The notes beneath the pieces were generated by a model, which had not been told where the DNA came from, ran no database searches, and was given only the letters and a program-made list of their open reading frames with translations. 64,000 nucleotides of DNA, from the IMG/VR virus record IMGVR_UViG_3300031784_000003. The stretch is one strand, 5' to 3'. This DNA is from a virus (taxonomy: Duplodnaviria; Caudoviricetes). Below are positions 2,448-61,134 of this stretch, one piece after another (positions within the stretch are counted from its first letter, which is position 1; each line of letters starts with the position of its first letter). Position numbers and translations under genes: made by a program.

Positions 2448-5400
2448 ATGGCAAATAAAAGAATAAAAGTAGCAGGTTACGCCCAAAGAATATTTTTCAA
2501 TGATAACATTGAATATAGGGATTTTAGTCCTGATTTAGTAGGATTACAACTTACTAGTGATGGAGGGACTACTCTATTTACTAATGGTAACTTTACAATA
2601 TCGACAAATTTAGATCCTAAACCTGATACGTTATTTATACAGGGTAAGAAATCTAAATTTTTTACGTTAGAAGATATTGTAGAGTCTGATACACCACAGT
2701 TAGAGATTCAAAAAAATATAAAAACTAAATTAAATATAGATTTAACAAATCCGTTAAGTTATATTTGGTATGGTTCTGCGAAAGAAATGGTAAAGGCTTC
2801 TTTAATTGAAATACAAGAAAAATGGCCTGCAGCGATTTATGTGGATAATAAAGTAGGTAGTGTTACTGGAAACAATATCACTAACTATGTTTATGATATA
2901 GAATCCGATGAATCTACATTTACGGTTAATAGTAATTACTTTATTAACCCTTACGGTATTAAATACACTATTGATGCTCAATATGTGGGTAATAACGATA
3001 GTGCAAATCCTTTAAGAAATTTTACTTTAAATTATGGTTCATATTTAATTGAACATAATGGAATTAGTAAAAAAATTAAAAGTATAACGCCTTCCACTCA
3101 AAAAACTAATTCTACTATTGAATTAGTGGTAGAAGGTAACCCATTTCCTGAATTGACAGGTATATACATACCTCAGTTATCATTTTTATTTAATAATGTA
3201 GATGGTTCAATACCATATTTTATTAAACCTAATGAATCGGAAATAGAAAAATTTTTTAGTGGATTAAATGAATTACAGAGTAATTTATTAAATAGAAACA
3301 TATACCCAAAATATAAATCTGAAGTTATTAGTACAAATTATACTGATGATGGTGTATTATTAACATCTAAATCAGTTTTAACTTTTCCTGTTTTAGATGA
3401 TGGATACAATTTAAACTTTTTTGATAGTTTTTATATTGCCTATATCGATCAATTAAATGATTTAGGTAAAGGTTTAGATGATACAAAAACTGATATCATA
3501 GTAAGAAAATATACTACTGAAGCGATATCTAGTTTTGATACTGTCCCTAGAGCGGATGGAAACGACTTAGTTTTAAACGGTGAGAAAGCAACTAAACTAT
3601 TAAGAATTTATGGTGTTGAGTTTGATTACGTTAAAAAATATATAAATGCAATTAAATTTGCACATGTTGTAACATACGATAAGAAGAATAATGTTCCAGA
3701 TACTTTGATAAAAGATTTGGCATTAATGTTAGGTTTTGAACCTATTAATTTTATTGATAGTTCATCTTTAAGTAAATTATTTTTACCTAGTAATGGGTCA
3801 GGTTTATTTAGCGGGACTTCAACAAATCTAACTGAATCAGAGATTGATGTTGAATTATATAGGAGAATAATTTTAAATATTGCTTGGTTATGGAAAAGTA
3901 AAGGTTCTAGAAAAGCAGTAGAATTTTTATTTAGATTTATTGGGGCACCAGAGTCTTTGGCAAATTTCAATGAATATGTGGTAATTGTCGATAAACCATT
4001 AGATATGGTAGAGATTAAAAAACTTTTATATCTATATACTGGTGACGTAAATTTAGATAATATACCATACGATGAAAACGGTTTTCCGTTACCACCTATT
4101 AATGGAGATATTGTAATATCAAATTATATTGATCCAGAAACTGGAGAAATAGTAGAGAATGATTTTACAGAAATGTACTTCCAAAAAGGGGGTGGTTGGT
4201 ATAGAGAGACTTATGGGTCTAATAGTCCTATTGTTTTAAATGGTAATAATCCACATGTGGGAAAATATGATGGCGGTAATGAATATTTACAATACTTTAG
4301 TAGGTGTTTCATACCTAATTTTGATAATGAACCTACAGTAACTTTAACTGCAAAAACATTAGTACAAAATTATTTTATTAATTATAATTATGGTATTTTT
4401 AATGGTATTAATGATAATTCTGAGATATTTACTAACCAATTAACATTTAACGCACTTACCAATAGTTATCAACCAATTAATGAATGTTTAAACGTTAATT
4501 ATTCGATAATAGAAACACCATTACAAAATGATGGTAAAACTACATTACAACAAGCGTTTTCTGGGGCACAGGCAGAGTATAATAGATACTTACAACTGAT
4601 TAAAGAAAATAGTTATTTACAATATTCACCTGAATGGGAAACAATAAAAAATAATTATGAATTATCTTTAAAAAATTGTTTAAATGAAATATCAACAGAA
4701 AACTGTGATATTAACAAAACATTAGAAATATGTTTATCTGAGAACCCAAAAGATCTTGTGGTATATAGTTGTAATAATTTAAATTTAGAAAATGCTTCCC
4801 CTTTTATATATTACACTAATAGTGATGGTGTAAAAGTATCTTTTGACGAATTCCCATCATGTTGTGCATCACAGGACGCAAAATATGTTTCATATGTAAA
4901 TGAATATGGTAGACAAACAGAATATTGTTCTAGTTTAGCACCTTGTGTTGGTAACCCTATTTCAACTTTACCTAACGGTGTTATAGAATTTGAAATGGTT
5001 AACAACACCACACCAAAAGATATAATACAAATAGAAACTAGGTGTTTTCAATATATTAATACTACCATTAGTTTTGAAGATTTTAGTGCTCGAGTTGATG
5101 CAACATCATATGTTAGCGATTTTTGTTTAGGCTTTGTTGATAGGGAGTTTACTTACCAATATGGTTATGGTCGCACTAATTGTGGAACATATTTTAAAGA
5201 AGTTACTTGTAATAGTACATCGATTGTTAGTAGTCCTGAATGTTGTGCTTGGTATGGGTATGGTTTTGAAATAATTGAACAAGGGGATTATAAATTTATT
5301 GTTTGTAAAGAAAAAAATCAACTTACTACCCCTGGACCTAGAAGAACAGGTATTGGTACAAAATATTATAATGAATATACCCTACCTATAATAGATTTTT

Positions 5401-8400: not shown

Positions 8401-10706
8401 ATTTTTATTTTAGTATTGAGATAGAAAATTATGAATGTGATGTGTGTTTATTAGTTGACAATATAATGGTAAACGTATCTGATTGTAAAACAGATAGGAT
8501 AGTTTCGATTAATAATTGTTTAATACCACAATTAAGTTGTGTAATAGATAACAAAAAATCTTGGGTGTATTATGAAGATGGTGTAGTTAAAGAAACCGTT
8601 TATCCTAATGGTGAATGTAATGGTGAATCCATTACTAATTTTGAGGTGGTTAAAATAAATGCACCACAAGAAAGACTATGGACAGATTTAGAATATAGAT
8701 ATACTAATTATGATAACTATCATTCAGATTTATTATTAAATGTTAAAAATACAACTTTTAGTATTGATCCTGCAAAATCTATAGAATGTGACGTATTTAA
8801 TTTTTGGAGAAATATTGATTGTGATAATTGTCCTACATCTAATAATTGCGATTCAGACAATTATATATTCCAAACCGCTGAAGATTATTTGTTTATGGAA
8901 GGTGACGATTACATCTTTCAAGATCAAATTATAACATATAGTAATTTTAATGATACATTAGATGTAACAGGAACTTCATTTAATTATAATTTAAATTTAG
9001 GTAATGCAACATTTAATAGTTTATCATTTAGTTGTGAAACATATACAAACACATTACAAAATCAAGTAATAGAACTTAAAAATAAGTATTATACATTAAC
9101 TTCTAATTATTCAGATTCATTAAATTCAACTTATTACGATTTATTAGAAAAAGGTGAAACACTTTCTAATTTTTATATAAATAAAAATAATTGTGGTGGG
9201 GATACTTTGGTTCTTAATAACAATAACCAAATTGGTAGTTTGTTTAATCTAATAGTAGAAGATAGTGATGGTACTTTAGGGTTATTTGATGTTTATACAT
9301 ATTCAGGTACACCTACATATAGTGGTGGTTATATACAAGAAATTTTATCTGGTGTAACTGCACAAACATTCAACCAAACAAATAATTTGACTAAAGAATG
9401 TTGTGAATCTATTAACACTTTATTAAATGTTAATGGTATTAATGGTTTAGGATTAGGTAAAAATTATCAATGGGACGAAGAAAATAATTCTTGTAATTGG
9501 TACAAAAATGACGATTGTTCTGATTGTAAAGGGGATTGTGAGTATTGTTCTAAAAGTAAAAGTTGTGTAAGTGGGGTAACTTCTGGTGATACATATAGTG
9601 TTTGTATTAACCCATTAGACTTTTTGGATATCGATACATCAAACATCAACATTAAAGATATTTTTGATGATTTAGTTTTAAGTAATTTGATAGATGCGAA
9701 AAGTAGACAAACAATTAGCGATTACCCATTATTAAGATTATTCTACGAACTTTATTTAAAGGCTAATAATTGTGGTAAAAATTTATCAAATAAATTTACA
9801 TATGACAGTATGTTTGAATTTATGGATAAAATAGGTGACTACTGGTTAGATTTAATTGAACAAGTAGTTCCTGCAACTACAATATGGGAAGGTTGTGATA
9901 ATTCAGGTAAAATTTATAGGAATACTATATTCGATCAAAATAAATTTAAATATAAAAAATCTAGTTTAAATTTTGTAGATGCCACAGTAGTTTGTCCTTT
10001 AAGTGCACAAACAGAATATAGTATTGGTTCAAAAACTATTCATTCTTTAGTTGAACAAAAACCAATATACCCTACTAATCCTGAAATTGAGAATTTAAAA
10101 AAACGAATAAAATTTGAAAATATTCGTATCAATAATAATATTAGGGCGTTAAAAAACTATGAAAAAGTATTATGTTCGTTAAAATTAAAAGATGTTGACA
10201 CACCAAATTTAAATAATCAAATACGACTATTAAATAATCAAATACAACTATTAAATAATTCGATAAAAGCTTTAAATAGTAAAGTACTTGGGTTGACATC
10301 TCAATTGGGTACTTTGGAAACAAAATATAAAGAACAACAAAATAATTTTGATAAAAATTTTATGAGTTGTAGTGGTTTATCAGAAACTTTAAAAACTGCG
10401 GAAGATAATTTAACTAATTATGTCCCTGGCACAACATCGTATGAAAGACAAAGAAATTTTATAGCATCGATTAAGGATAAATATTATAGATGTGTTAGAA
10501 AATCAAATGTATTAGTAACTGATTATAACACTGTTTTTATAACTCAAATTTATGATACTAATGAATATGAAGGTAATGTTACTATAATAGGTGATGATGA
10601 TTGGGTTGACGGTGGACCTTTTAATAATAAAGAGTTAATTCATAACTGTGAGTCGTCTTGGGAAAGAGCTAGAAACTATTGGGATTACTTTTACAACAGA
10701 TCTTAA
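2448..10706 (+). CDS. Giant Cys-rich baseplate wedge/tail protein (2752 aa)
   Basis: ELYRRIILNIAWLWKSKGSRKAVEFLFRFIG resembles the P2 gpI/T4 gp7-type wedge signature; coiled-coil stretches; many CC pairs. Confidence 0.6.
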   Translation: MANKRIKVAGYAQRIFFNDNIEYRDFSPDLVGLQLTSDGGTTLFTNGNFTISTNLDPKPDTLFIQGKKSKFFTLEDIVESDTPQLEIQKNIKTKLNIDLTNPLSYIWYGSAKEMVKASLIEIQEKWPAAIYVDNKVGSVTGNNITNYVYDIESDESTFTVNSNYFINPYGIKYTIDAQYVGNNDSANPLRNFTLNYGSYLIEHNGISKKIKSITPSTQKTNSTIELVVEGNPFPELTGIYIPQLSFLFNNVDGSIPYFIKPNESEIEKFFSGLNELQSNLLNRNIYPKYKSEVISTNYTDDGVLLTSKSVLTFPVLDDGYNLNFFDSFYIAYIDQLNDLGKGLDDTKTDIIVRKYTTEAISSFDTVPRADGNDLVLNGEKATKLLRIYGVEFDYVKKYINAIKFAHVVTYDKKNNVPDTLIKDLALMLGFEPINFIDSSSLSKLFLPSNGSGLFSGTSTNLTESEIDVELYRRIILNIAWLWKSKGSRKAVEFLFRFIGAPESLANFNEYVVIVDKPLDMVEIKKLLYLYTGDVNLDNIPYDENGFPLPPINGDIVISNYIDPETGEIVENDFTEMYFQKGGGWYRETYGSNSPIVLNGNNPHVGKYDGGNEYLQYFSRCFIPNFDNEPTVTLTAKTLVQNYFINYNYGIFNGINDNSEIFTNQLTFNALTNSYQPINECLNVNYSIIETPLQNDGKTTLQQAFSGAQAEYNRYLQLIKENSYLQYSPEWETIKNNYELSLKNCLNEISTENCDINKTLEICLSENPKDLVVYSCNNLNLENASPFIYYTNSDGVKVSFDEFPSCCASQDAKYVSYVNEYGRQTEYCSSLAPCVGNPISTLPNGVIEFEMVNNTTPKDIIQIETRCFQYINTTISFEDFSARVDATSYVSDFCLGFVDREFTYQYGYGRTNCGTYFKEVTCNSTSIVSSPECCAWYGYGFEIIEQGDYKFIVCKEKNQLTTPGPRRTGIGTKYYNEYTLPIIDFSVNSSYYNLQNPIGDVYNYYSTEIFWDNFNKARIVKEVVPGSKSLSLQPSSVLQDPSLMTPSNWKVDSIDEYGRVSFTPKTFTDNFILDWYSSDLLSDLYKTVATYYGYKFSKFTFDYNNNVLVPFVGDNLYSDRPNSVITAAVDSNRVACGDVNSVAVVFASEKWKGFNLPKLDDCSCTIDFSFDYMLKYDVNNLTRCASGISCYPAFIYDNTIDNINCLNFVAFTNNANTSVNLQRNFNDSTFVTEEYVLWQNSTILEPNVECCKAVTGNVVAFREWAESNQTWVKKIEDTYIAIYQRNTSVLNSLDFDYTPIYNQAIKYFDLKSIFYDSLPYAVISEGVGGFDGSGKECFTPDFTEEPCNILYENYITTQNVCSLNMPLECGLWSKLYGDYEKLSSEVTRLIEEYNTNIADCGGTTYNQVVPYSYESVSPSESNYVPPMAEMVVVDKERTLNSLETQKVEQIAILRADEVTLTSNINDLKNTIGEKESTNIVIRKALTSVNSDLDCSIYEVSIKEIDNFNYKEYCNTIIYNGGINDGSKNVDYNNCVSTKTIENSEQKLVYSELLNSCILKNQLNSQLVNSKFENNQVLTTTLENQIQQLNVKINELTTNANSVIAVNESYQNSKLLENDTQNTINVVSEILNVSPQSITDSSGNLVISDSQKLKLNVELTKNESQISGLNRDVQNYFDSLNENIQNQKYIEYGTNFIQNDLKTNINNINLVDPPITQPTTQRIGISPTTDNKISNMDYNQYTGEFNNLTWVKPDYNPITEEFIPVRTDYNQFITEDLIPTKPINNGFDASIGGEYNKTEEVAQVVNVGTGNFSDCCLAYLKLKENNTIQVLNDILLDVQESINFIKTNVYNAYNRWNDTLENSYENYIESSTNYLKYIDDLKINFKLFVDNNNIDVNNSIDTSLTYLPYTQSINPIWEFNPSEGYSGILLEGDEQSLALVEESIFDTLSSKNINYNSNLFEPDWKTFNFTIPECVCDDLRRLYPNKDFYFSIEIENYECDVCLLVDNIMVNVSDCKTDRIVSINNCLIPQLSCVIDNKKSWVYYEDGVVKETVYPNGECNGESITNFEVVKINAPQERLWTDLEYRYTNYDNYHSDLLLNVKNTTFSIDPAKSIECDVFNFWRNIDCDNCPTSNNCDSDNYIFQTAEDYLFMEGDDYIFQDQIITYSNFNDTLDVTGTSFNYNLNLGNATFNSLSFSCETYTNTLQNQVIELKNKYYTLTSNYSDSLNSTYYDLLEKGETLSNFYINKNNCGGDTLVLNNNNQIGSLFNLIVEDSDGTLGLFDVYTYSGTPTYSGGYIQEILSGVTAQTFNQTNNLTKECCESINTLLNVNGINGLGLGKNYQWDEENNSCNWYKNDDCSDCKGDCEYCSKSKSCVSGVTSGDTYSVCINPLDFLDIDTSNINIKDIFDDLVLSNLIDAKSRQTISDYPLLRLFYELYLKANNCGKNLSNKFTYDSMFEFMDKIGDYWLDLIEQVVPATTIWEGCDNSGKIYRNTIFDQNKFKYKKSSLNFVDATVVCPLSAQTEYSIGSKTIHSLVEQKPIYPTNPEIENLKKRIKFENIRINNNIRALKNYEKVLCSLKLKDVDTPNLNNQIRLLNNQIQLLNNSIKALNSKVLGLTSQLGTLETKYKEQQNNFDKNFMSCSGLSETLKTAEDNLTNYVPGTTSYERQRNFIASIKDKYYRCVRKSNVLVTDYNTVFITQIYDTNEYEGNVTIIGDDDWVDGGPFNNKELIHNCESSWERARNYWDYFYNRS

Positions 10707-54401: not shown

Positions 54402-54802
54402 GGGGATGGTTTTGGATTTGACAATCAAAGGTTGAGTTCGGAATGATGCAAGCAGGGTTAGATGGAAACCCTTAAACACCTATCAAAACATAAATGCAAA
54501 CGCATACAACGTAGAGGATATCATGAGTATCCCAACTTCTATTACTCGCTCAGCGGTAGTTGAAGAGATTGAATTAATGGAATTAGTTTAATCGGTGGGT
54601 CACACTTACCTAGAAACAGAAAGGTGTAAAAAATAGAGTTGATCGTCAATACTCTATAAACAATTGACGAAAACAGGGTTGTTGGATAACCATGTTATAA
54701 ATAAAACCAAATATTTTGTTTATTTAGAAAAATAAACTAAGCTTGTGAATGATTTTCTTATGGCGATTTGATTGGACGAGGGTTCGACTCCCTCCATCTC
54801 CA
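54402..54802 (+). ncRNA. ssrA: tmRNA
   Basis: 5' GGGGATG..GGATTTGAC; 3' T-arm GAGGG-TTCGACT-CCCTC and CATCTCCA with G3:U; resume codon GCA at 54496, tag ORF ends 54591. Confidence 0.92.
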
Positions 54803-54872
54803 CTAGTGTTGTCGGTTTCTTTGTTCCCTAAAAACAAAGTGGTGGAAGTTGATAGTAATCCTATCGGCCCTT

Positions 54873-54903
54873 TAACCCCTCAGAGTGAGGGGTTATTTTT
54901 TTT
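54873..54903 (+). terminator. Intrinsic terminator
   Basis: TAACCCCTCA-gag-TGAGGGGTTA followed by a T tract. Confidence 0.85.
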
Positions 54904-58040: not shown

Positions 58041-58086
58041 TAAAAAAATATTTTTAAAATATTGACTTTTTAGATAAACTTTTGTA
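58041..58086 (+). promoter_or_regulatory. Promoter of tRNA operon 1 (46-bp repeat, copy 1)
   Basis: taaaaaaatatttttaaaatattgactttttagataaacttttgta, identical to 59495..59540. Confidence 0.8.
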
Positions 58087-58117
58087 TAATTGGTTATATT
58101 TAATTAAAACAGTGAAA

Positions 58118-58204
58118 ATGAAAATACATAATATACATATTAATTTTAGCCAATGGTGTCAACCGTATATCGGCGGATTGGGGTATATTATGGATATAAT
58201 TTAA
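58118..58204 (+). CDS. Attenuator leader peptide 1 (MKIHNIHINFSQWCQPYIGGLGYIMDII)
   Basis: 28-codon ORF between promoter and terminator (in-frame GTG also at 58112); codons match operon 1 tRNAs. Confidence 0.75.
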   Translation: MKIHNIHINFSQWCQPYIGGLGYIMDII

Positions 58205-58230
58205 TTGATAGTTAAATAAAATCAAAGTGA

Positions 58231-58265
58231 AACCCCAATTCAGAAATGATTTGGGGTTTTTTAAT
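58231..58265 (+). terminator. Attenuator terminator 1
   Basis: AAACCCCAATTCA-gaaa-TGATTTGGGGTTT plus U tract; competing strand ATTGGGGT at 58177..58184. Confidence 0.85.
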
Positions 58266-58271
58266 TTATTA

Positions 58272-58347
58272 CGGTATGTGGCCAAGTAGGTTTAAGGCAT
58301 CTCGCTGATATCGAGAAGATTCGTAGGTTCGATCCCTACCATACCGA
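58272..58347 (+). tRNA. tRNA-Ile(GAT)
   Basis: Cloverleaf; TCTCG-CTGATAT-CGAGA. Confidence 0.9.
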
Positions 58348-58356
58348 CAGAACAAA

Positions 58357-58370
58357 AGTTCTTTGACATA
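58357..58370 (+). promoter_or_regulatory. boxA-like antitermination element
   Basis: AGTTCTTTGACATA; also at 59742, with variants at about 47372 and 54387. Confidence 0.6.
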
Positions 58371-58387
58371 TTGTTATAAAAGTGAAT

Positions 58388-58460
58388 GACTCAGTAGCTC
58401 AGTTGGTAGAGCAATTGACTGTTAATCAATCGGTCGCAGGTTCGAATCCTGCCTGAGTCG
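58388..58460 (+). tRNA. tRNA-Asn(GTT)
   Basis: Cloverleaf; loop CTGTTAA. Confidence 0.95.
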
Positions 58461-58461
58461 C

Positions 58462-58523
58462 AAACTAACACAGAATGAATGATACGAGCCTCACAAGTTC
58501 GAAAGGAGTCAGGGTGTTAGTTT
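58462..58523 (+). ncRNA. Small structured element with anticodon-like stem-loop (CAC)
   Basis: 10-bp stem AAACTAACAC/GTGTTAGTTT enclosing CGAGC-CTCACAA-GTTCG. Confidence 0.4.
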
Positions 58524-58527
58524 AAAT

Positions 58528-58611
58528 GGGAATACGCCAAAGTTGGAGAGTTGGGGCAGACTGTAAATCTGTTGTCTTATGATTGAGTAGGTTCGAATCC
58601 TACTATTCTCA
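58528..58611 (+). tRNA. tRNA-Tyr(GTA)
   Basis: Cloverleaf with long variable arm; loop CTGTAAA. Confidence 0.92.
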
Positions 58612-58612
58612 C

Positions 58613-58693
58613 AAAATATTAAAAGGAAGATTTCAGCAAAAATAACTACGAACTGCAAATTTGGATATGTAAAAACATTTTCCTGAATATTTT
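58613..58693 (+). ncRNA. Minimal Y-RNA-like element with Cys anticodon-loop mimic
   Basis: AAAATATT/AATATTTT and AGGAAGAT/ATTTTCCT stems, TTCAGCAA motif, CGAA-CTGCAAA-TTTG hairpin. Confidence 0.5.
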
Positions 58694-58697
58694 ATTA

Positions 58698-58768
58698 GCG
58701 TCTCTGGTGTAACGGTAGCACCAACGGCTCCAACCCGTTAAGTAAGAGTTCGAATCTTTTGGGGCGCG
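58698..58768 (+). tRNA. tRNA-Trp(CCA)
   Basis: AACGG-CTCCAAC-CCGTT. Confidence 0.9.
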
Positions 58769-58773
58769 CAAAT

Positions 58774-58849
58774 GGTGATGTAGCTCAGTTGGTAGAGCAA
58801 TGGACTGAAAATCCTTGTGTCGGTGGTTCGATTCCGTCCATCACCACCA
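58774..58849 (+). tRNA. tRNA-Phe(GAA)
   Basis: Cloverleaf with encoded CCA. Confidence 0.95.
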
Positions 58850-58857
58850 AATTTTAA

Positions 58858-58932
58858 CTGGGTATTGGCTAATTGGTAAGCCGCCACATTTGGGATGTGG
58901 ACATAGTGTGAGTTCGAGTCTCGCTACCCAGA
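58858..58932 (+). tRNA. tRNA-Pro(TGG)
   Basis: CCACA-TTTGGGA-TGTGG. Confidence 0.92.
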
Positions 58933-58939
58933 CTAATAT

Positions 58940-59013
58940 TGTCCTGTAGACGAATTGGCAAAGTCATCACGCTTTGAACGTGAAGTTTGGAAGTTCGAGC
59001 CTTCCCAGGACAA
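58940..59013 (+). tRNA. tRNA-Gln(TTG)
   Basis: TCACG-CTTTGAA-CGTGA. Confidence 0.9.
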
Positions 59014-59015
59014 CT

Positions 59016-59089
59016 GTGTATGAAGCTAAAGAGGTCGAGGCGTCGGGTTGTGATTCCGATAATAGTGGGTTCGAGTCCCATCGTACACC
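59016..59089 (+). tRNA. tRNA-His(GTG)
   Basis: TCGGG-TTGTGAT-TCCGA; C73 discriminator. Confidence 0.9.
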
Positions 59090-59093
59090 TAAT

Positions 59094-59180
59094 GGAAAGA
59101 TGACAGAGTGGTTTATTGTGGCACCCTGCTAAGGTGTTGTACTCGAAAGGGTACCATAGGTTCAAATCCTATTCTTTCCG
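59094..59180 (+). tRNA. tRNA-Ser(GCT)
   Basis: GCACC-CTGCTAA-GGTGT; long variable arm. Confidence 0.92.
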
Positions 59181-59186
59181 CAATAT

Positions 59187-59258
59187 GGGGATGTGATGTA
59201 ACGGTGAACATGCTACTCTTATACAGTAGTCTCGGTGGTTCGACTCCACCCATCCCTA
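59187..59258 (+). tRNA. tRNA-Ile(TAT)
   Basis: CTACT-CTTATAC-AGTAG; GGGGATG/CATCCCT acceptor stem. Confidence 0.85.
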
Positions 59259-59262
59259 CAAC

Positions 59263-59335
59263 ACACTCTTAGTTCAATGGATTAGAACCTATGACTACGG
59301 ATCATAAAATGGGAGTTCGAATCTCTCAGAGTGTA
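59263..59335 (+). tRNA. tRNA-Arg(ACG)
   Basis: TATGA-CTACGGA-TCATA. Confidence 0.9.
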
Positions 59336-59404
59336 CAATAAACTTATTTTTGCTACAATAAACAGATAAAGTTTATCATGCAAAATCTAGTTTAGTGAAC
59401 TAAT

Positions 59405-59478
59405 GGTCAGATGCCTGAGTGGTTTAAAGGGGTAGTCTGCAAAACTATTTTTCGGGGGTTCGAATCCCTCTCTGACCT
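59405..59478 (+). tRNA. tRNA-Cys(GCA)
   Basis: GTAGT-CTGCAAA-ACTAT; U73. Confidence 0.92.
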
Positions 59479-59494
59479 CATAAATAAAAAAAAT

Positions 59495-59540
59495 TAAAAA
59501 AATATTTTTAAAATATTGACTTTTTAGATAAACTTTTGTA
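59495..59540 (+). promoter_or_regulatory. Promoter of tRNA operon 2 (46-bp repeat, copy 2)
   Basis: Identical to 58041..58086; followed by Bacteroidota -7 element TAACTTTG. Confidence 0.8.
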
Positions 59541-59578
59541 ACTTTGTGTATATTTAATTAAAAACGAAATAAAATTCA

Positions 59579-59677
59579 GTGAAAACTACAATGACATACA
59601 GATTAGAGGTTGCTAAGGCAAAAATGGATGGGGCGGATTCGCTTCTACCAAATCTTAGGGTATATCATTATAGTTAA
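59579..59677 (+). CDS. Attenuator leader peptide 2 (MKTTMTYRLEVAKAKMDGADSLLPNLRVYHYS)
   Basis: 32-codon GTG-start ORF in the same cagtgaaaa context as leader 1; codons match operon 2 tRNAs. Confidence 0.75.
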   Translation: MKTTMTYRLEVAKAKMDGADSLLPNLRVYHYS

Positions 59678-59706
59678 TCAAAAAAATTTAAAATACTATA
59701 TTATGG

Positions 59707-59740
59707 AAACCCTAAGTGAAAACTTAGGGTTTTTTGTTTT
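59707..59740 (+). terminator. Attenuator terminator 2
   Basis: AAACCCTAAGT-gaaa-ACTTAGGGTTT plus U tract; competing CTTAGGGT at 59654..59661. Confidence 0.88.
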
Positions 59741-59741
59741 T

Positions 59742-59755
59742 AGTTCTTTGACATA
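59742..59755 (+). promoter_or_regulatory. boxA-like element
   Basis: AGTTCTTTGACATA immediately after terminator 2. Confidence 0.6.
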
Positions 59756-59766
59756 TTAAAAAAAAT

Positions 59767-59852
59767 GGAAGAGTGGCAGAGTTGGTTTATTGCACCTGTC
59801 TTGAAAATAGGAGTACTTAACGGTACCGTAGGTTCGAATCCTACCTCTTCCT
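59767..59852 (+). tRNA. tRNA-Ser(TGA)
   Basis: CCTGT-CTTGAAA-ATAGG; long variable arm. Confidence 0.92.
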
Positions 59853-59855
59853 CAA

Positions 59856-59999
59856 AATGATAATAAAGGGATTGTTTCTGCAACAATTATTTTAGCCTTT
59901 TAAGCTCGGGGTCGTAGGTTCGAATCCTACCTGAGGACATTTATTGTCTTCAGTAGCTTAGTGGTAGAGCACGTATACAACCCAATCCTGATTATCATT
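59856..59999 (+). ncRNA. YrlA-like Y RNA (circularly permuted tRNA mimic)
   Basis: Closing stems AATGATAAT/ATTATCATT and GGGATTG/CAATCCT; T-arm precedes loop-closed acceptor stem CTGAGGAC/GTCTTCAG, then D-arm. Confidence 0.8.
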
Positions 60000-60004
60000 T
60001 ATTA

Positions 60005-60080
60005 GGTCCATTGGTGTAATGGTTTAACATACATCACTGTCTATGATGTGCTGAGAGTTCGATTCTCTCATGGACCGCCA
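60005..60080 (+). tRNA. tRNA-Asp(GTC)
   Basis: Cloverleaf with CCA. Confidence 0.93.
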
Positions 60081-60081
60081 C

Positions 60082-60154
60082 AGTCTCTTAACTCAGTTGG
60101 TAGAGTGCTTGTTTTACATGCAAGATGTCGTAGGTTCGAATCCTACAGAGACTA
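60082..60154 (+). tRNA. tRNA-Val(TAC)
   Basis: CTTGT-TTTACAT-GCAAG. Confidence 0.92.
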
Positions 60155-60162
60155 CTAAATAC

Positions 60163-60236
60163 CGCCCGTTGGACAAGTGGTTTAAGTCGTTTCCCTTTCA
60201 CGGAAAAGATCATGGGTTCGAATCCCATACGGGTGA
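60163..60236 (+). tRNA. tRNA-Glu(TTC)
   Basis: TTTCC-CTTTCAC-GGAAA. Confidence 0.92.
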
Positions 60237-60242
60237 CTATTA

Positions 60243-60314
60243 GGTTTTGTAGTTTAGTCGGTAAAACTCTTGATTTGTAATCAAGTGTCCTCAGTTCGAA
60301 TCTGAGCGAAACCT
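60243..60314 (+). tRNA. tRNA-Thr(TGT)
   Basis: CTTGA-TTTGTAA-TCAAG. Confidence 0.9.
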
Positions 60315-60320
60315 CAACAA

Positions 60321-60395
60321 TCCTTCGTAGCTCAGTTGGTTTAGAGCAGTACACTTTTAATGTACGGGTCACAGGTTCGATTCCTGTCGGGGGAA
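60321..60395 (+). tRNA. tRNA-Lys(TTT)
   Basis: GTACA-CTTTTAA-TGTAC. Confidence 0.93.
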
Positions 60396-60429
60396 CTTAA
60401 ATATACCGAATTCGGTGTAATTAAAAAAT

Positions 60430-60507
60430 AGCGGGGTAGACTGGAGGTGGTTCCAGCTCGGTCTCATAAGCCGAATTACGTGGGTTCGAGTCCCATCCCC
60501 GCAACCA
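60430..60507 (+). tRNA. tRNA-Met(CAT), initiator-like
   Basis: TCGGT-CTCATAA-GCCGA; unpaired A1:A72; CCA encoded. Confidence 0.85.
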
Positions 60508-60510
60508 ATT

Positions 60511-60584
60511 GGGTCATTGGTGAAGATGGCTATCACACCTGATTTGCACTCAGGAGTCCTCGGTTCGATGCCGAGATGTATCCA
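60511..60584 (+). tRNA. tRNA-Ala(TGC) with bulged acceptor stem
   Basis: CCTGA-TTTGCAC-TCAGG; G3:U70 present; one extra T in the 3' acceptor strand. Confidence 0.8.
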
Positions 60585-60750
60585 CTAATAATAAAAATAA
60601 AAATAAAAAGTATGAAAGAAGTAATGTCTGGGACAATTAAGTCCTCAAAGGAAAATTTTAATATGTTGAGACATAGAAAAAATTCAATCGATTTAAGTAA
60701 GTTGGTAGAATTTATTAAATTTAAAAAGATTAGGAAAAAATAATCTTAAT

Positions 60751-60823
60751 GCAGGTATCGTATAGTGGTTTATTATGTCTGACTTCCAATCAGAGGACGA
60801 GAGTTCGATTCTCTCTACCTGCT
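60751..60823 (+). tRNA. tRNA-Gly(TCC)
   Basis: TCTGA-CTTCCAA-TCAGA; U73. Confidence 0.92.
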
Positions 60824-60829
60824 CAAAAT

Positions 60830-60904
60830 GCCAAAGTGACGGGAAATGGTATACCTCTTTGTCTTAGAAACAAAGGTTTGTGAGTTCGAATCTCACCTTT
60901 GGTA
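60830..60904 (+). tRNA. tRNA-Leu(TAG) with short variable loop
   Basis: TTTGT-CTTAGAA-ACAAA; 5-nt variable region GGTTT. Confidence 0.8.
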
Positions 60905-61134
60905 CAATTATTATTAAAATATTTGTTTTTTAATTTAATAGTTTTTATATTTGTTAAAAAAATATTATGGGAATACCTCAAATCACTTTAATTTTATTAT
61001 TTTCTTTAAGTTTATTAGCTGCAGCTCATTTGCACGGTAAAGAAAGAACCCCACATAACTTTTGGGTTACATTTATTGCAGTCATCATCGAAGTATCTAT
61101 TTTAATATGGGGTGGGTTTTTTTAAATTAGTATT

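Follow-up and report, generated by a model that had tools for sequence, protein, structure and literature searches.

A stretch of 64,000 nucleotides of viral DNA (Duplodnaviria; Caudoviricetes; record IMGVR_UViG_3300031784_000003), referred to below as the window, carries two consecutive arrays of transfer RNA (tRNA) genes. Each array is preceded by a promoter, a short open reading frame (ORF) and an intrinsic terminator. Here we describe these two units, the codon content of their ORFs and the alternative structures predicted for their leader RNAs, and we propose that transcription of each tRNA array is controlled by ribosome-mediated (leader-peptide) attenuation, a reading to which we give a probability of about 0.8. 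Coordinates are those of the window unless a contig is named.

Layout of the two units

Both units lie on the + strand. Unit 1 opens with promoter block 1 (58041-58099), in which a TTGACT hexamer (-33/-35) occupies 58062-58067 and the -7/-10 box TATAATTG occupies 58085-58092. Written as TTGACT-17-TATAAT, this promoter matches the consensus at 11 of 12 positions, and transcription would be expected to start near 58098-58100. Leader ORF 1 follows at 58118-58204 and consists of 28 codons plus a stop, encoding the peptide MKIHNIHINFSQWCQPYIGGLGYIMDII. Downstream of it stand intrinsic terminator 1 (58229-58265), made up of a hairpin at 58229-58260 with a predicted stability of -17.1 kcal/mol and a U-tract, and then tRNA array 1 (58272-59479), which encodes Ile-GAT, Asn, Tyr, Trp, Phe, Pro, Gln, His, Ser-GCT, Ile-TAT, Arg-ACG and Cys. 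The order of promoter, 28-codon leader, terminator and 12 tRNAs with these anticodons had been described in a first-pass annotation made from the letters alone, and it was recovered as claimed, the terminator boundaries being refined to those given here.

Unit 2 repeats this arrangement. Promoter block 2 (59489-59553) is a duplicate of block 1, with TTGACT at 59516-59521 and TAACTTTG at 59539-59546. About 70 nt around promoter block 1 are near-identical to the block preceding array 2, and an identical 27-nt promoter block stands at both 58060-58086 and 59514-59540 (the window has two matches versus none expected, and none in 100 shuffles). The unit 2 promoter and the orthologue promoters carry TAACTTTG at the -7 position, which is the Bacteroidota-type -7 box TAnnTTTG. 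Leader ORF 2 (59579-59677) has 32 codons counted from a GTG at 59579 and contains an internal ATG at 59591. It is followed by intrinsic terminator 2 (59705-59740), the 5' arm of which (59709-59716) has an alternative partner at 59654-59661, inside leader 2. Array 2 (59767-60905) encodes Ser-TGA, Asp, Val, Glu, Thr, Lys, Met, Ala, Gly and Leu-TAG. All tRNAs of the two arrays were identified with ARAGORN and with Rfam RF00005; combined, the arrays supply tRNAs for all 20 amino acids.

Both terminators have predicted stabilities of about -17 kcal/mol, and the first tRNA lies 7 nt downstream of the terminator in unit 1 and 27 nt downstream in unit 2. Strong + strand terminators are rare in the 64 kb, only 9 being found, and terminators 1 and 2 are among them. 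A further element shared by the two units, GTTCTTTGACATATT, is located at 58355-58371, after the first tRNA of array 1, and at 59741-59757, after terminator 2. It is conserved in orthologues and may be a processing or protein-binding site.

Codon content of the leaders

Codons 3-18 of leader 1 (58124-58171), which we call the listing codons, form an unbroken run of 16 codons, each read by array 1 and not by array 2, and together they cover 11 of the 12 species in that array. Leader 2 behaves similarly with respect to the other array: it contains a 14-codon run read by array 2 only, covering 9 species (P about 3e-4), and its codons 2-23 cover 10 of the 10 array-2 species. For comparison, array 1 reads about 39% of the codons of the window and array 2 reads 52%.

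The first-pass annotation had noted the match between leader 1 and array 1 and had suggested a test of leader codons against array anticodons. We scored single-array runs covering at least 11 species within 28 codons. No such run occurred in 100,000 draws from window codon usage, nor in the 1,523 real stop-free 28-codon tiles of the window in six frames, the maximum being 9 species in both cases. It was likewise absent from about 29,000 stop-free sequences generated by a Markov model of the leaders' own composition. It is relevant that this last null preserves composition, since AT-only codons favour array 1. Thus, the composition of leader 1, with all codons 3-18 read by the array and 11 of 12 species represented, was never matched in the nulls, and its correspondence with the array is confirmed as real and far beyond chance.

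These nulls bear directly on a first alternative, namely that short AT-rich ORFs by nature contain many Ile, Asn, Tyr and Phe codons and that array 1 happens to read these. Array 1 does indeed decode five of the seven sense codons made of A and T only, and the listing run opens with eight AT-rich codons. Nevertheless, neither composition-matched Markov sequences nor real window tiles ever reach the observed value (P < 1e-5), the list of leader 1 is completed by the rare codons AGC, CCG, TGG and TGT, and leader 2 is G-rich yet matches the other array. A permutation over 20 leader-array units, described below, was also never equalled in 100,000 trials. We therefore regard a base-composition coincidence as barely credible.

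The two leaders also divide the serine codons between them according to isoacceptor: AGC is present in leader 1, upstream of the array that encodes Ser-GCT, and TCG is present in leader 2, upstream of the array that encodes Ser-TGA. This split, matching the array isoacceptors, excludes a simple explanation by phage codon usage.

Predicted alternative RNA structures

We next consider the folding of the leader transcripts, for which the first-pass annotation had proposed the mutually exclusive 1:2, 2:3 and 3:4 pairings of classical attenuators. Such alternatives are predicted in both units. In the minimum free energy (MFE) structure of the full-length transcript, the early part of the ORF pairs with its late part (1:2) and the terminator forms (3:4). 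In unit 1, region 1, the 5' strand of this anti-antiterminator, spans 58127-58146 and thus lies within the listing codons, and region 2 spans 58175-58192; the predicted helices join 58127-58136 to 58183-58192 and 58140-58146 to 58175-58181. In unit 2, region 1 is predicted at 59585-59604 and pairs with 59651-59674. When the 3' arm of the terminator is removed from the transcript, the MFE structure in both units becomes a 2:3 antiterminator. That of unit 1 joins 58175-58184 to 58232-58241 through 10 base pairs (-16.9 kcal/mol; z = -4.4 versus dinucleotide shuffles), and that of unit 2 joins 59654-59661 to 59709-59716 (z = -2.2 versus the same type of shuffle). Region 2 can therefore pair either with region 1 or, in unit 1 via 58175-58184, with the terminator 5' arm.

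The elements that had been named for this switch in the first-pass annotation fared differently. ATTGGGGT is found at 58177-58184, where it had been placed, and a perfect complement to it does exist; this complement, ACCCCAAT, lies however at 58232-58239, one base away from the claimed 58233-58240. A CCAAT at 58150-58154 had been put forward as region 1. It is present, but it is unused in the MFE structure and absent from the orthologue L026, and the partner predicted for region 2 is instead 58127-58146.

Regions 2, 3 and 4 read ATTGGGGT, ACCCCAAT and TTTGGGGT in unit 1 versus CTTAGGGT, ACCCTAAG and CTTAGGGT in unit 2. Between these paralogous units, the three regions covary at two positions. 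A cmscan search of 58041-58271 and 59489-59766 against Rfam, T-box included, returned no family match at E <= 1.

Folding with a masked ribosome, also suggested by the first-pass annotation, was carried out by blocking 30 nt around each A-site position, the codons of unit 2 being numbered from ATG 59591. The antiterminator is predicted to be kept with the A-site at codons 1-15 of unit 1 and 1-17 of unit 2, and to be lost with the ribosome at codons 16-27 of unit 1 and 18-28 of unit 2. The mask boundaries, at codons 15/16 and 17/18, indicate that the listing codons stop where region 2 starts. The tail codons of the leaders that are off the list are those that form the RNA helices.

Orthologues and natural variants

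Using a 20-mer of the Ile-TAT tRNA, we located four viral contigs with homologous arrays (L023, L024, L025 and L026). L025 has the identical set of 22 tRNAs and nearly unchanged leaders. Seven codons of its leader 2 are changed, and all of these remain within the array-2 set (P about 0.04 versus random substitution). The other three contigs share a more divergent leader 1, MIMNNIHSNPIQWCQPFYIYGRMGYVMSLFKF. In this L026-type leader, 8 of 15 aligned codons are changed, of which 6 specify another amino acid, and an in-frame insertion of two codons accounts for an indel of 6 nt relative to the window. Even so, array 1 still reads 14 of the 15 codons, and the leader once more covers 11 of 12 species (P 0.01-0.02 versus random substitution). 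The second array of L023, L024 and L026 is without the Asp and Glu tRNAs, which are found 6.8 kb away together with Leu-TAA, Arg-TCT and Met. In the same three contigs, a 124-codon ORF is inserted between array 1 and promoter 2.

The comparison also bears on the reading frames. The ATG at 58118 that starts leader 1 is kept in L025 and L026; an in-frame GTG at 58112 was considered as an alternative start and rejected, as it is GTA in orthologues. For leader 2, the start at 59579 is GTG in the window and ATG in L025, in L026 and in one metagenomic variant. The internal ATG at 59591 was rejected in favour of 59579, its codon being TTC in L026.

Several natural variants fall in the predicted helices. 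Pair 58132/58187 of helix 1:2 is T-A in the window and C-G in L026, a compensatory change. In terminator 2, a variant contig from a wastewater run carries 59709 A>G with 59730 T>C, again compensatory, and the same contig shows parallel A>G changes at 59657 and 59726, both of which are partners of 59713. All three indels of this contig lie outside the leader 2 ORF. In unit 1, variants from three runs carry 58250 T>G, which turns the only mismatch of terminator 1 (U-U) into a U-G pair, and the same is seen in L025 and L026.

These patterns can be set against a second alternative, in which promoter, ORF and terminator constitute a free-standing micropeptide or small-RNA gene, the tRNAs being made by constitutive readthrough or from other promoters. 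Such a gene, having its own promoter and terminator, would yield a discrete transcript of about 165 nt, and the conserved GTTCTTTGACATATT, with its TTGACA core, after terminator 2 and after the first tRNA could be taken to point the same way. That element is however too near the next tRNA to be its promoter, and the region is without an Rfam match. Moreover, it is not the peptide that is conserved, 6 of the 8 changed L026 codons being non-synonymous, but membership in the tRNA set, and a free-standing gene would leave both the array-specific codons and the complementarity to the terminator arm unexplained. We consider this alternative very improbable.

L003, the viral contig whose proteins are most similar to those of the window (75-97% identity), carries protein genes at the place of the arrays, indicating that the tRNA module is accessory. 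In that contig, a lipoprotein-like gene and a large ORF (L003, 12030-14510) replace the arrays. Four relatives found via a flanking 256-aa protein, of which L003 is the closest, have no tRNAs at this site and hence no orthologous leaders.

Metagenomes that contain the phage come from 16 studies and sample lakes, reservoirs, drinking water and wastewater. Its DNA has a G+C content of 28% and its host is probably a member of the Bacteroidota. A related contig of 126 kb is rated 39% complete, which suggests a genome of roughly 300 kb. An exact promoter 25-mer had no match among the viral contigs or metagenome contigs searched. Searching cultured phages with blastn yielded no cultured relative: apart from generic tRNA matches, the only hit resembled the promoter and lay in a Flavobacterium phage that has no tRNAs there.

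Leaders before tRNA arrays in other huge phages

Through a methylase encoded in the window we reached three unrelated, uncultured huge phages, LR745206, LR756502 and LR756501 (635-735 kb), which have 45-62 tRNAs each, arranged in arrays. Candidate units were picked blind to codons, as the longest ATG-initiated ORF that ends at most 70 nt from a perfect-stem terminator, the terminator itself being at most 300 nt upstream of tRNAs. This selection yielded 18 units of ORF, terminator and array. Among them, a leader with a Gln run, MTTTQQIQQQQINQTD, precedes three Gln tRNAs; a leader rich in His, Lys, Phe and Trp precedes His, Phe, Trp and Lys tRNAs; a leader rich in Tyr and Glu precedes Glu and Tyr tRNAs; and a leader of Asn, Leu, Met, Thr, Val and Ile precedes exactly those six kinds of tRNA.

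Across all 20 units of the four phages, the fraction of leader codons decoded by the leader's own array is 0.378, versus 0.163 +/- 0.033 when leaders and arrays are permuted within each genome; the observed fraction was reached in 0 of 100,000 permutations. Additionally, significant complementarity between the 3' part of the leader and the terminator 5' arm was found in 12 of the 20 units.

During this survey, ARAGORN called tRNAs with four-base anticodons (GTAG, TTAC) in arrays of LR745206 and LR756501 (L012, 1465-1538; L021, reverse complement, 4168-4258), which may be miscalls or tRNAs of a frameshift-suppressor-like kind.

Proposed mechanism and its strength

The attenuator interpretation of the first-pass annotation is supported: with the exception of CCAAT as region 1, all of its sequence-level predictions that were tested were borne out. 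The structural features of a leader-peptide attenuator are present at the locus: an in-frame ORF, cognate codons, a terminator, a predicted antiterminator that excludes it, and a predicted region 1 able to sequester region 2. We propose the following sequence of events, in which transcription of the tRNAs would be made dependent on the decoding speed of their cognate codons. Transcription from the strong, duplicated promoter would enter the short leader ORF, the first two thirds of which contain almost only codons of the tRNAs encoded downstream. If all listed codons are decoded fast, the ribosome would come to lie on region 2, in the last third of the ORF, as the polymerase transcribes the terminator; the terminator hairpin would form and the array would stay off. 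If any listed codon is decoded slowly, owing to scarcity of the charged tRNA, the ribosome would stall on region 1, region 2 would be free to pair with the terminator 5' arm, and the polymerase would read through into the entire array. If the leader is not translated, the 1:2 and 3:4 helices would form and transcription would terminate. The outcome would be an OR-gated supply, in which phage tRNAs are made when host and phage tRNAs for the listed codons run short and production declines once they are plentiful; as the leader is read by host and phage tRNAs alike, the circuit would limit itself. The sequences show the anatomy, the non-random and array-specific codons, the predicted alternative helices and their conservation, whereas leader translation, coupling to the polymerase, the way readthrough responds and what triggers it in nature are inferred.

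A number of observations weigh against this reading. Firstly, the lists are imperfect. Arg-ACG is the sole array-1 species without a codon in leader 1, the lists are broken by off-list codons (Lys AAA in unit 1; Tyr, Arg-AGA and Leu-TTA in unit 2), and most tRNA species are represented by one leader codon each, below what is seen in classical attenuators. Secondly, tracking of the array is not strict. The first-pass annotation had asked whether leaders in related phages follow the content of their arrays, and they do so in part: set membership is kept in orthologues and the 18 huge-phage units match, but the L023-type leader 2 still has two Glu codons and one Asp codon although the array has lost those tRNAs. 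Thirdly, with the ribosome at the stop codon (codon 29), the 10-nt antiterminator core lies just beyond the 30-nt footprint, so that a purely thermodynamic mask predicts the antiterminator; termination under fast translation must then depend on timing or steric exclusion. Finally, the covariation is thin: each unit is represented by three or four distinct sequences, in which most pairs do not vary, and L026 has lost part of the pairing in the lower half of helix 1:2.

A third alternative is a variant in which a translation-coupled attenuator senses amino-acid starvation (that is, charging), ribosome availability or the phase of infection, the codon list being a broad sample of decoding and not a detector of lost tRNAs. 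It is established for trp and his attenuation that a stalled ribosome reports delivery of charged tRNA, so that low tRNA and low charging are indistinguishable to it. The single listing of most species, as well as the Asp and Glu codons retained by the L023-type leader 2 in the absence of those array tRNAs, both speak for such a variant. A general sensor would not, however, need lists that are array-specific down to the serine isoacceptor and that track their arrays in 20 units of four phages. Furthermore, extra tRNA cannot relieve amino-acid starvation, and feedback of this kind is thus sensible for tRNA supply only. We judge this variant unlikely, and retain the reading in which each leader gates its array according to the decoding of that array's own codons.

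A broader proposal is that the two units form a complete circuit for surveillance of the tRNA pool. The 20 amino acids would be split over two independently gated arrays, each leader acting as an OR gate over 10-11 species, such that loss of any single host tRNA calls up a full, self-limiting replacement set. The cause of such loss might be an anticodon-nuclease defence, phage-induced decay of host tRNAs or the codon demand of a phage of 28% G+C, and the device would then serve counter-defence and homeostasis generally in giant phages of Bacteroidota and beyond. This extension is tentative, and we see the odds as lying somewhat against it.

Phage tRNA genes are usually viewed as passive helpers and, as far as we know, published work treats phage tRNA arrays as simply expressed. 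If the arrays are gated by leaders, large phages would possess a tRNA-pool sensor with a feedback loop, and leader-peptide attenuation would be extended from amino-acid supply to the tRNAs themselves. The same reading, if true, would account for the grouping of tRNAs into arrays and provide a testable link to host defences that target tRNAs. It would also supply a rule for annotation, whereby the leader peptide predicts the array, and the leaders could be used as compact synthetic sensors of single-tRNA depletion.

Neighbouring elements

A transfer-messenger RNA (tmRNA) gene is located 3.2 kb upstream of the arrays, at 54402-54805 (Rfam RF00023, 104 bits, E 1e-40), with its own terminator at 54873-54895. 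The tag that ARAGORN assigns to it is unusually long, at 31 residues.

Two other elements lie within array 2. Between tRNA-Ser-TGA and tRNA-Asp, at 59886-59998, we found a circularly permuted tRNA-like element, which consists of a T-arm, a loop-closed acceptor stem, a D-arm and a closing stem. It has a weak, below-threshold Rfam match to YrlA (Y RNA-like; 30.9 bits). Six of its 25 pairs are compensatory relative to the L025 orthologue, which argues that it is a real structured RNA. Between tRNA-Ala and tRNA-Gly, at 60612-60743, stands a 43-codon basic ORF that begins MKEVMSGTIKSSKENFN. This ORF is kept in L025, L023, L024 and L026, and it is therefore probably a real small protein gene within the tRNA operon.

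Relatives of the phage contain a third tRNA cluster (L008, 1300-2600; L023, reverse complement, 9369-10439), with Leu-TAA, Arg-TCT and others. These two tRNAs decode TTA and AGA, codons that have no decoder in either array of the window. The cluster is embedded in long, structured-looking non-coding stretches and has no leader ORF, and the window ends about 4.5 kb short of the equivalent site.

Comparison with known systems

As the first-pass annotation had supposed, no description of attenuators acting on tRNA arrays was found, either in the full-text literature searched or in the huge-phage paper PMC7162821. In function, the genes themselves agree with phage tRNA sets viewed as making up for lost host tRNAs or for a codon mismatch; here the set is near-complete and belongs to a large AT-rich phage.

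Among regulatory systems, T-box RNAs resemble the phage units in choosing between terminator and antiterminator for translation-related genes according to tRNA status. They do so, however, without a ribosome or an ORF: the RNA itself binds uncharged tRNA, by means of a specifier codon and the T-box sequence, whereas the phage device is ORF-based. The pheM leader of E. coli pheST, the nearest analogue that acts on a translation component, is also a leader-peptide attenuator that works by decoding of cognate codons. It controls a synthetase protein gene and reads one amino acid, in contrast to the phage leaders, which stand before tRNA genes.

The trpL and hisL leaders share the four-region logic and terminate if the leader is untranslated. 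They sense one amino acid each. The stop codon of trpL puts the ribosome on region 2, whereas the phage stop lies 18 nt past the antiterminator core. The phage device is outside the Trp, His, Leu and Thr leader families of Rfam, the regulated genes being tRNAs and no family match being found.

The nearest analogues are the multivalent leaders of ilvGMEDA and ilvBN and thrL. In them, several amino acids are represented among the codons of a short ORF that lies between a promoter and an intrinsic terminator, the 1:2, 2:3 and 3:4 pairings exclude one another, and a stall at any of the codons leads to readthrough. These leaders belong to Enterobacteria, whereas the phage host is probably a member of the Bacteroidota, and the phage leaders share neither sequence nor Rfam similarity with them. 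The ilv and thr leaders read two or three amino acids in runs and control biosynthetic enzymes, whereas the phage leaders list 10-11 tRNA species, mostly once each, and would control the tRNA genes themselves, so that the product of the regulated operon would feed directly back on the sensor.

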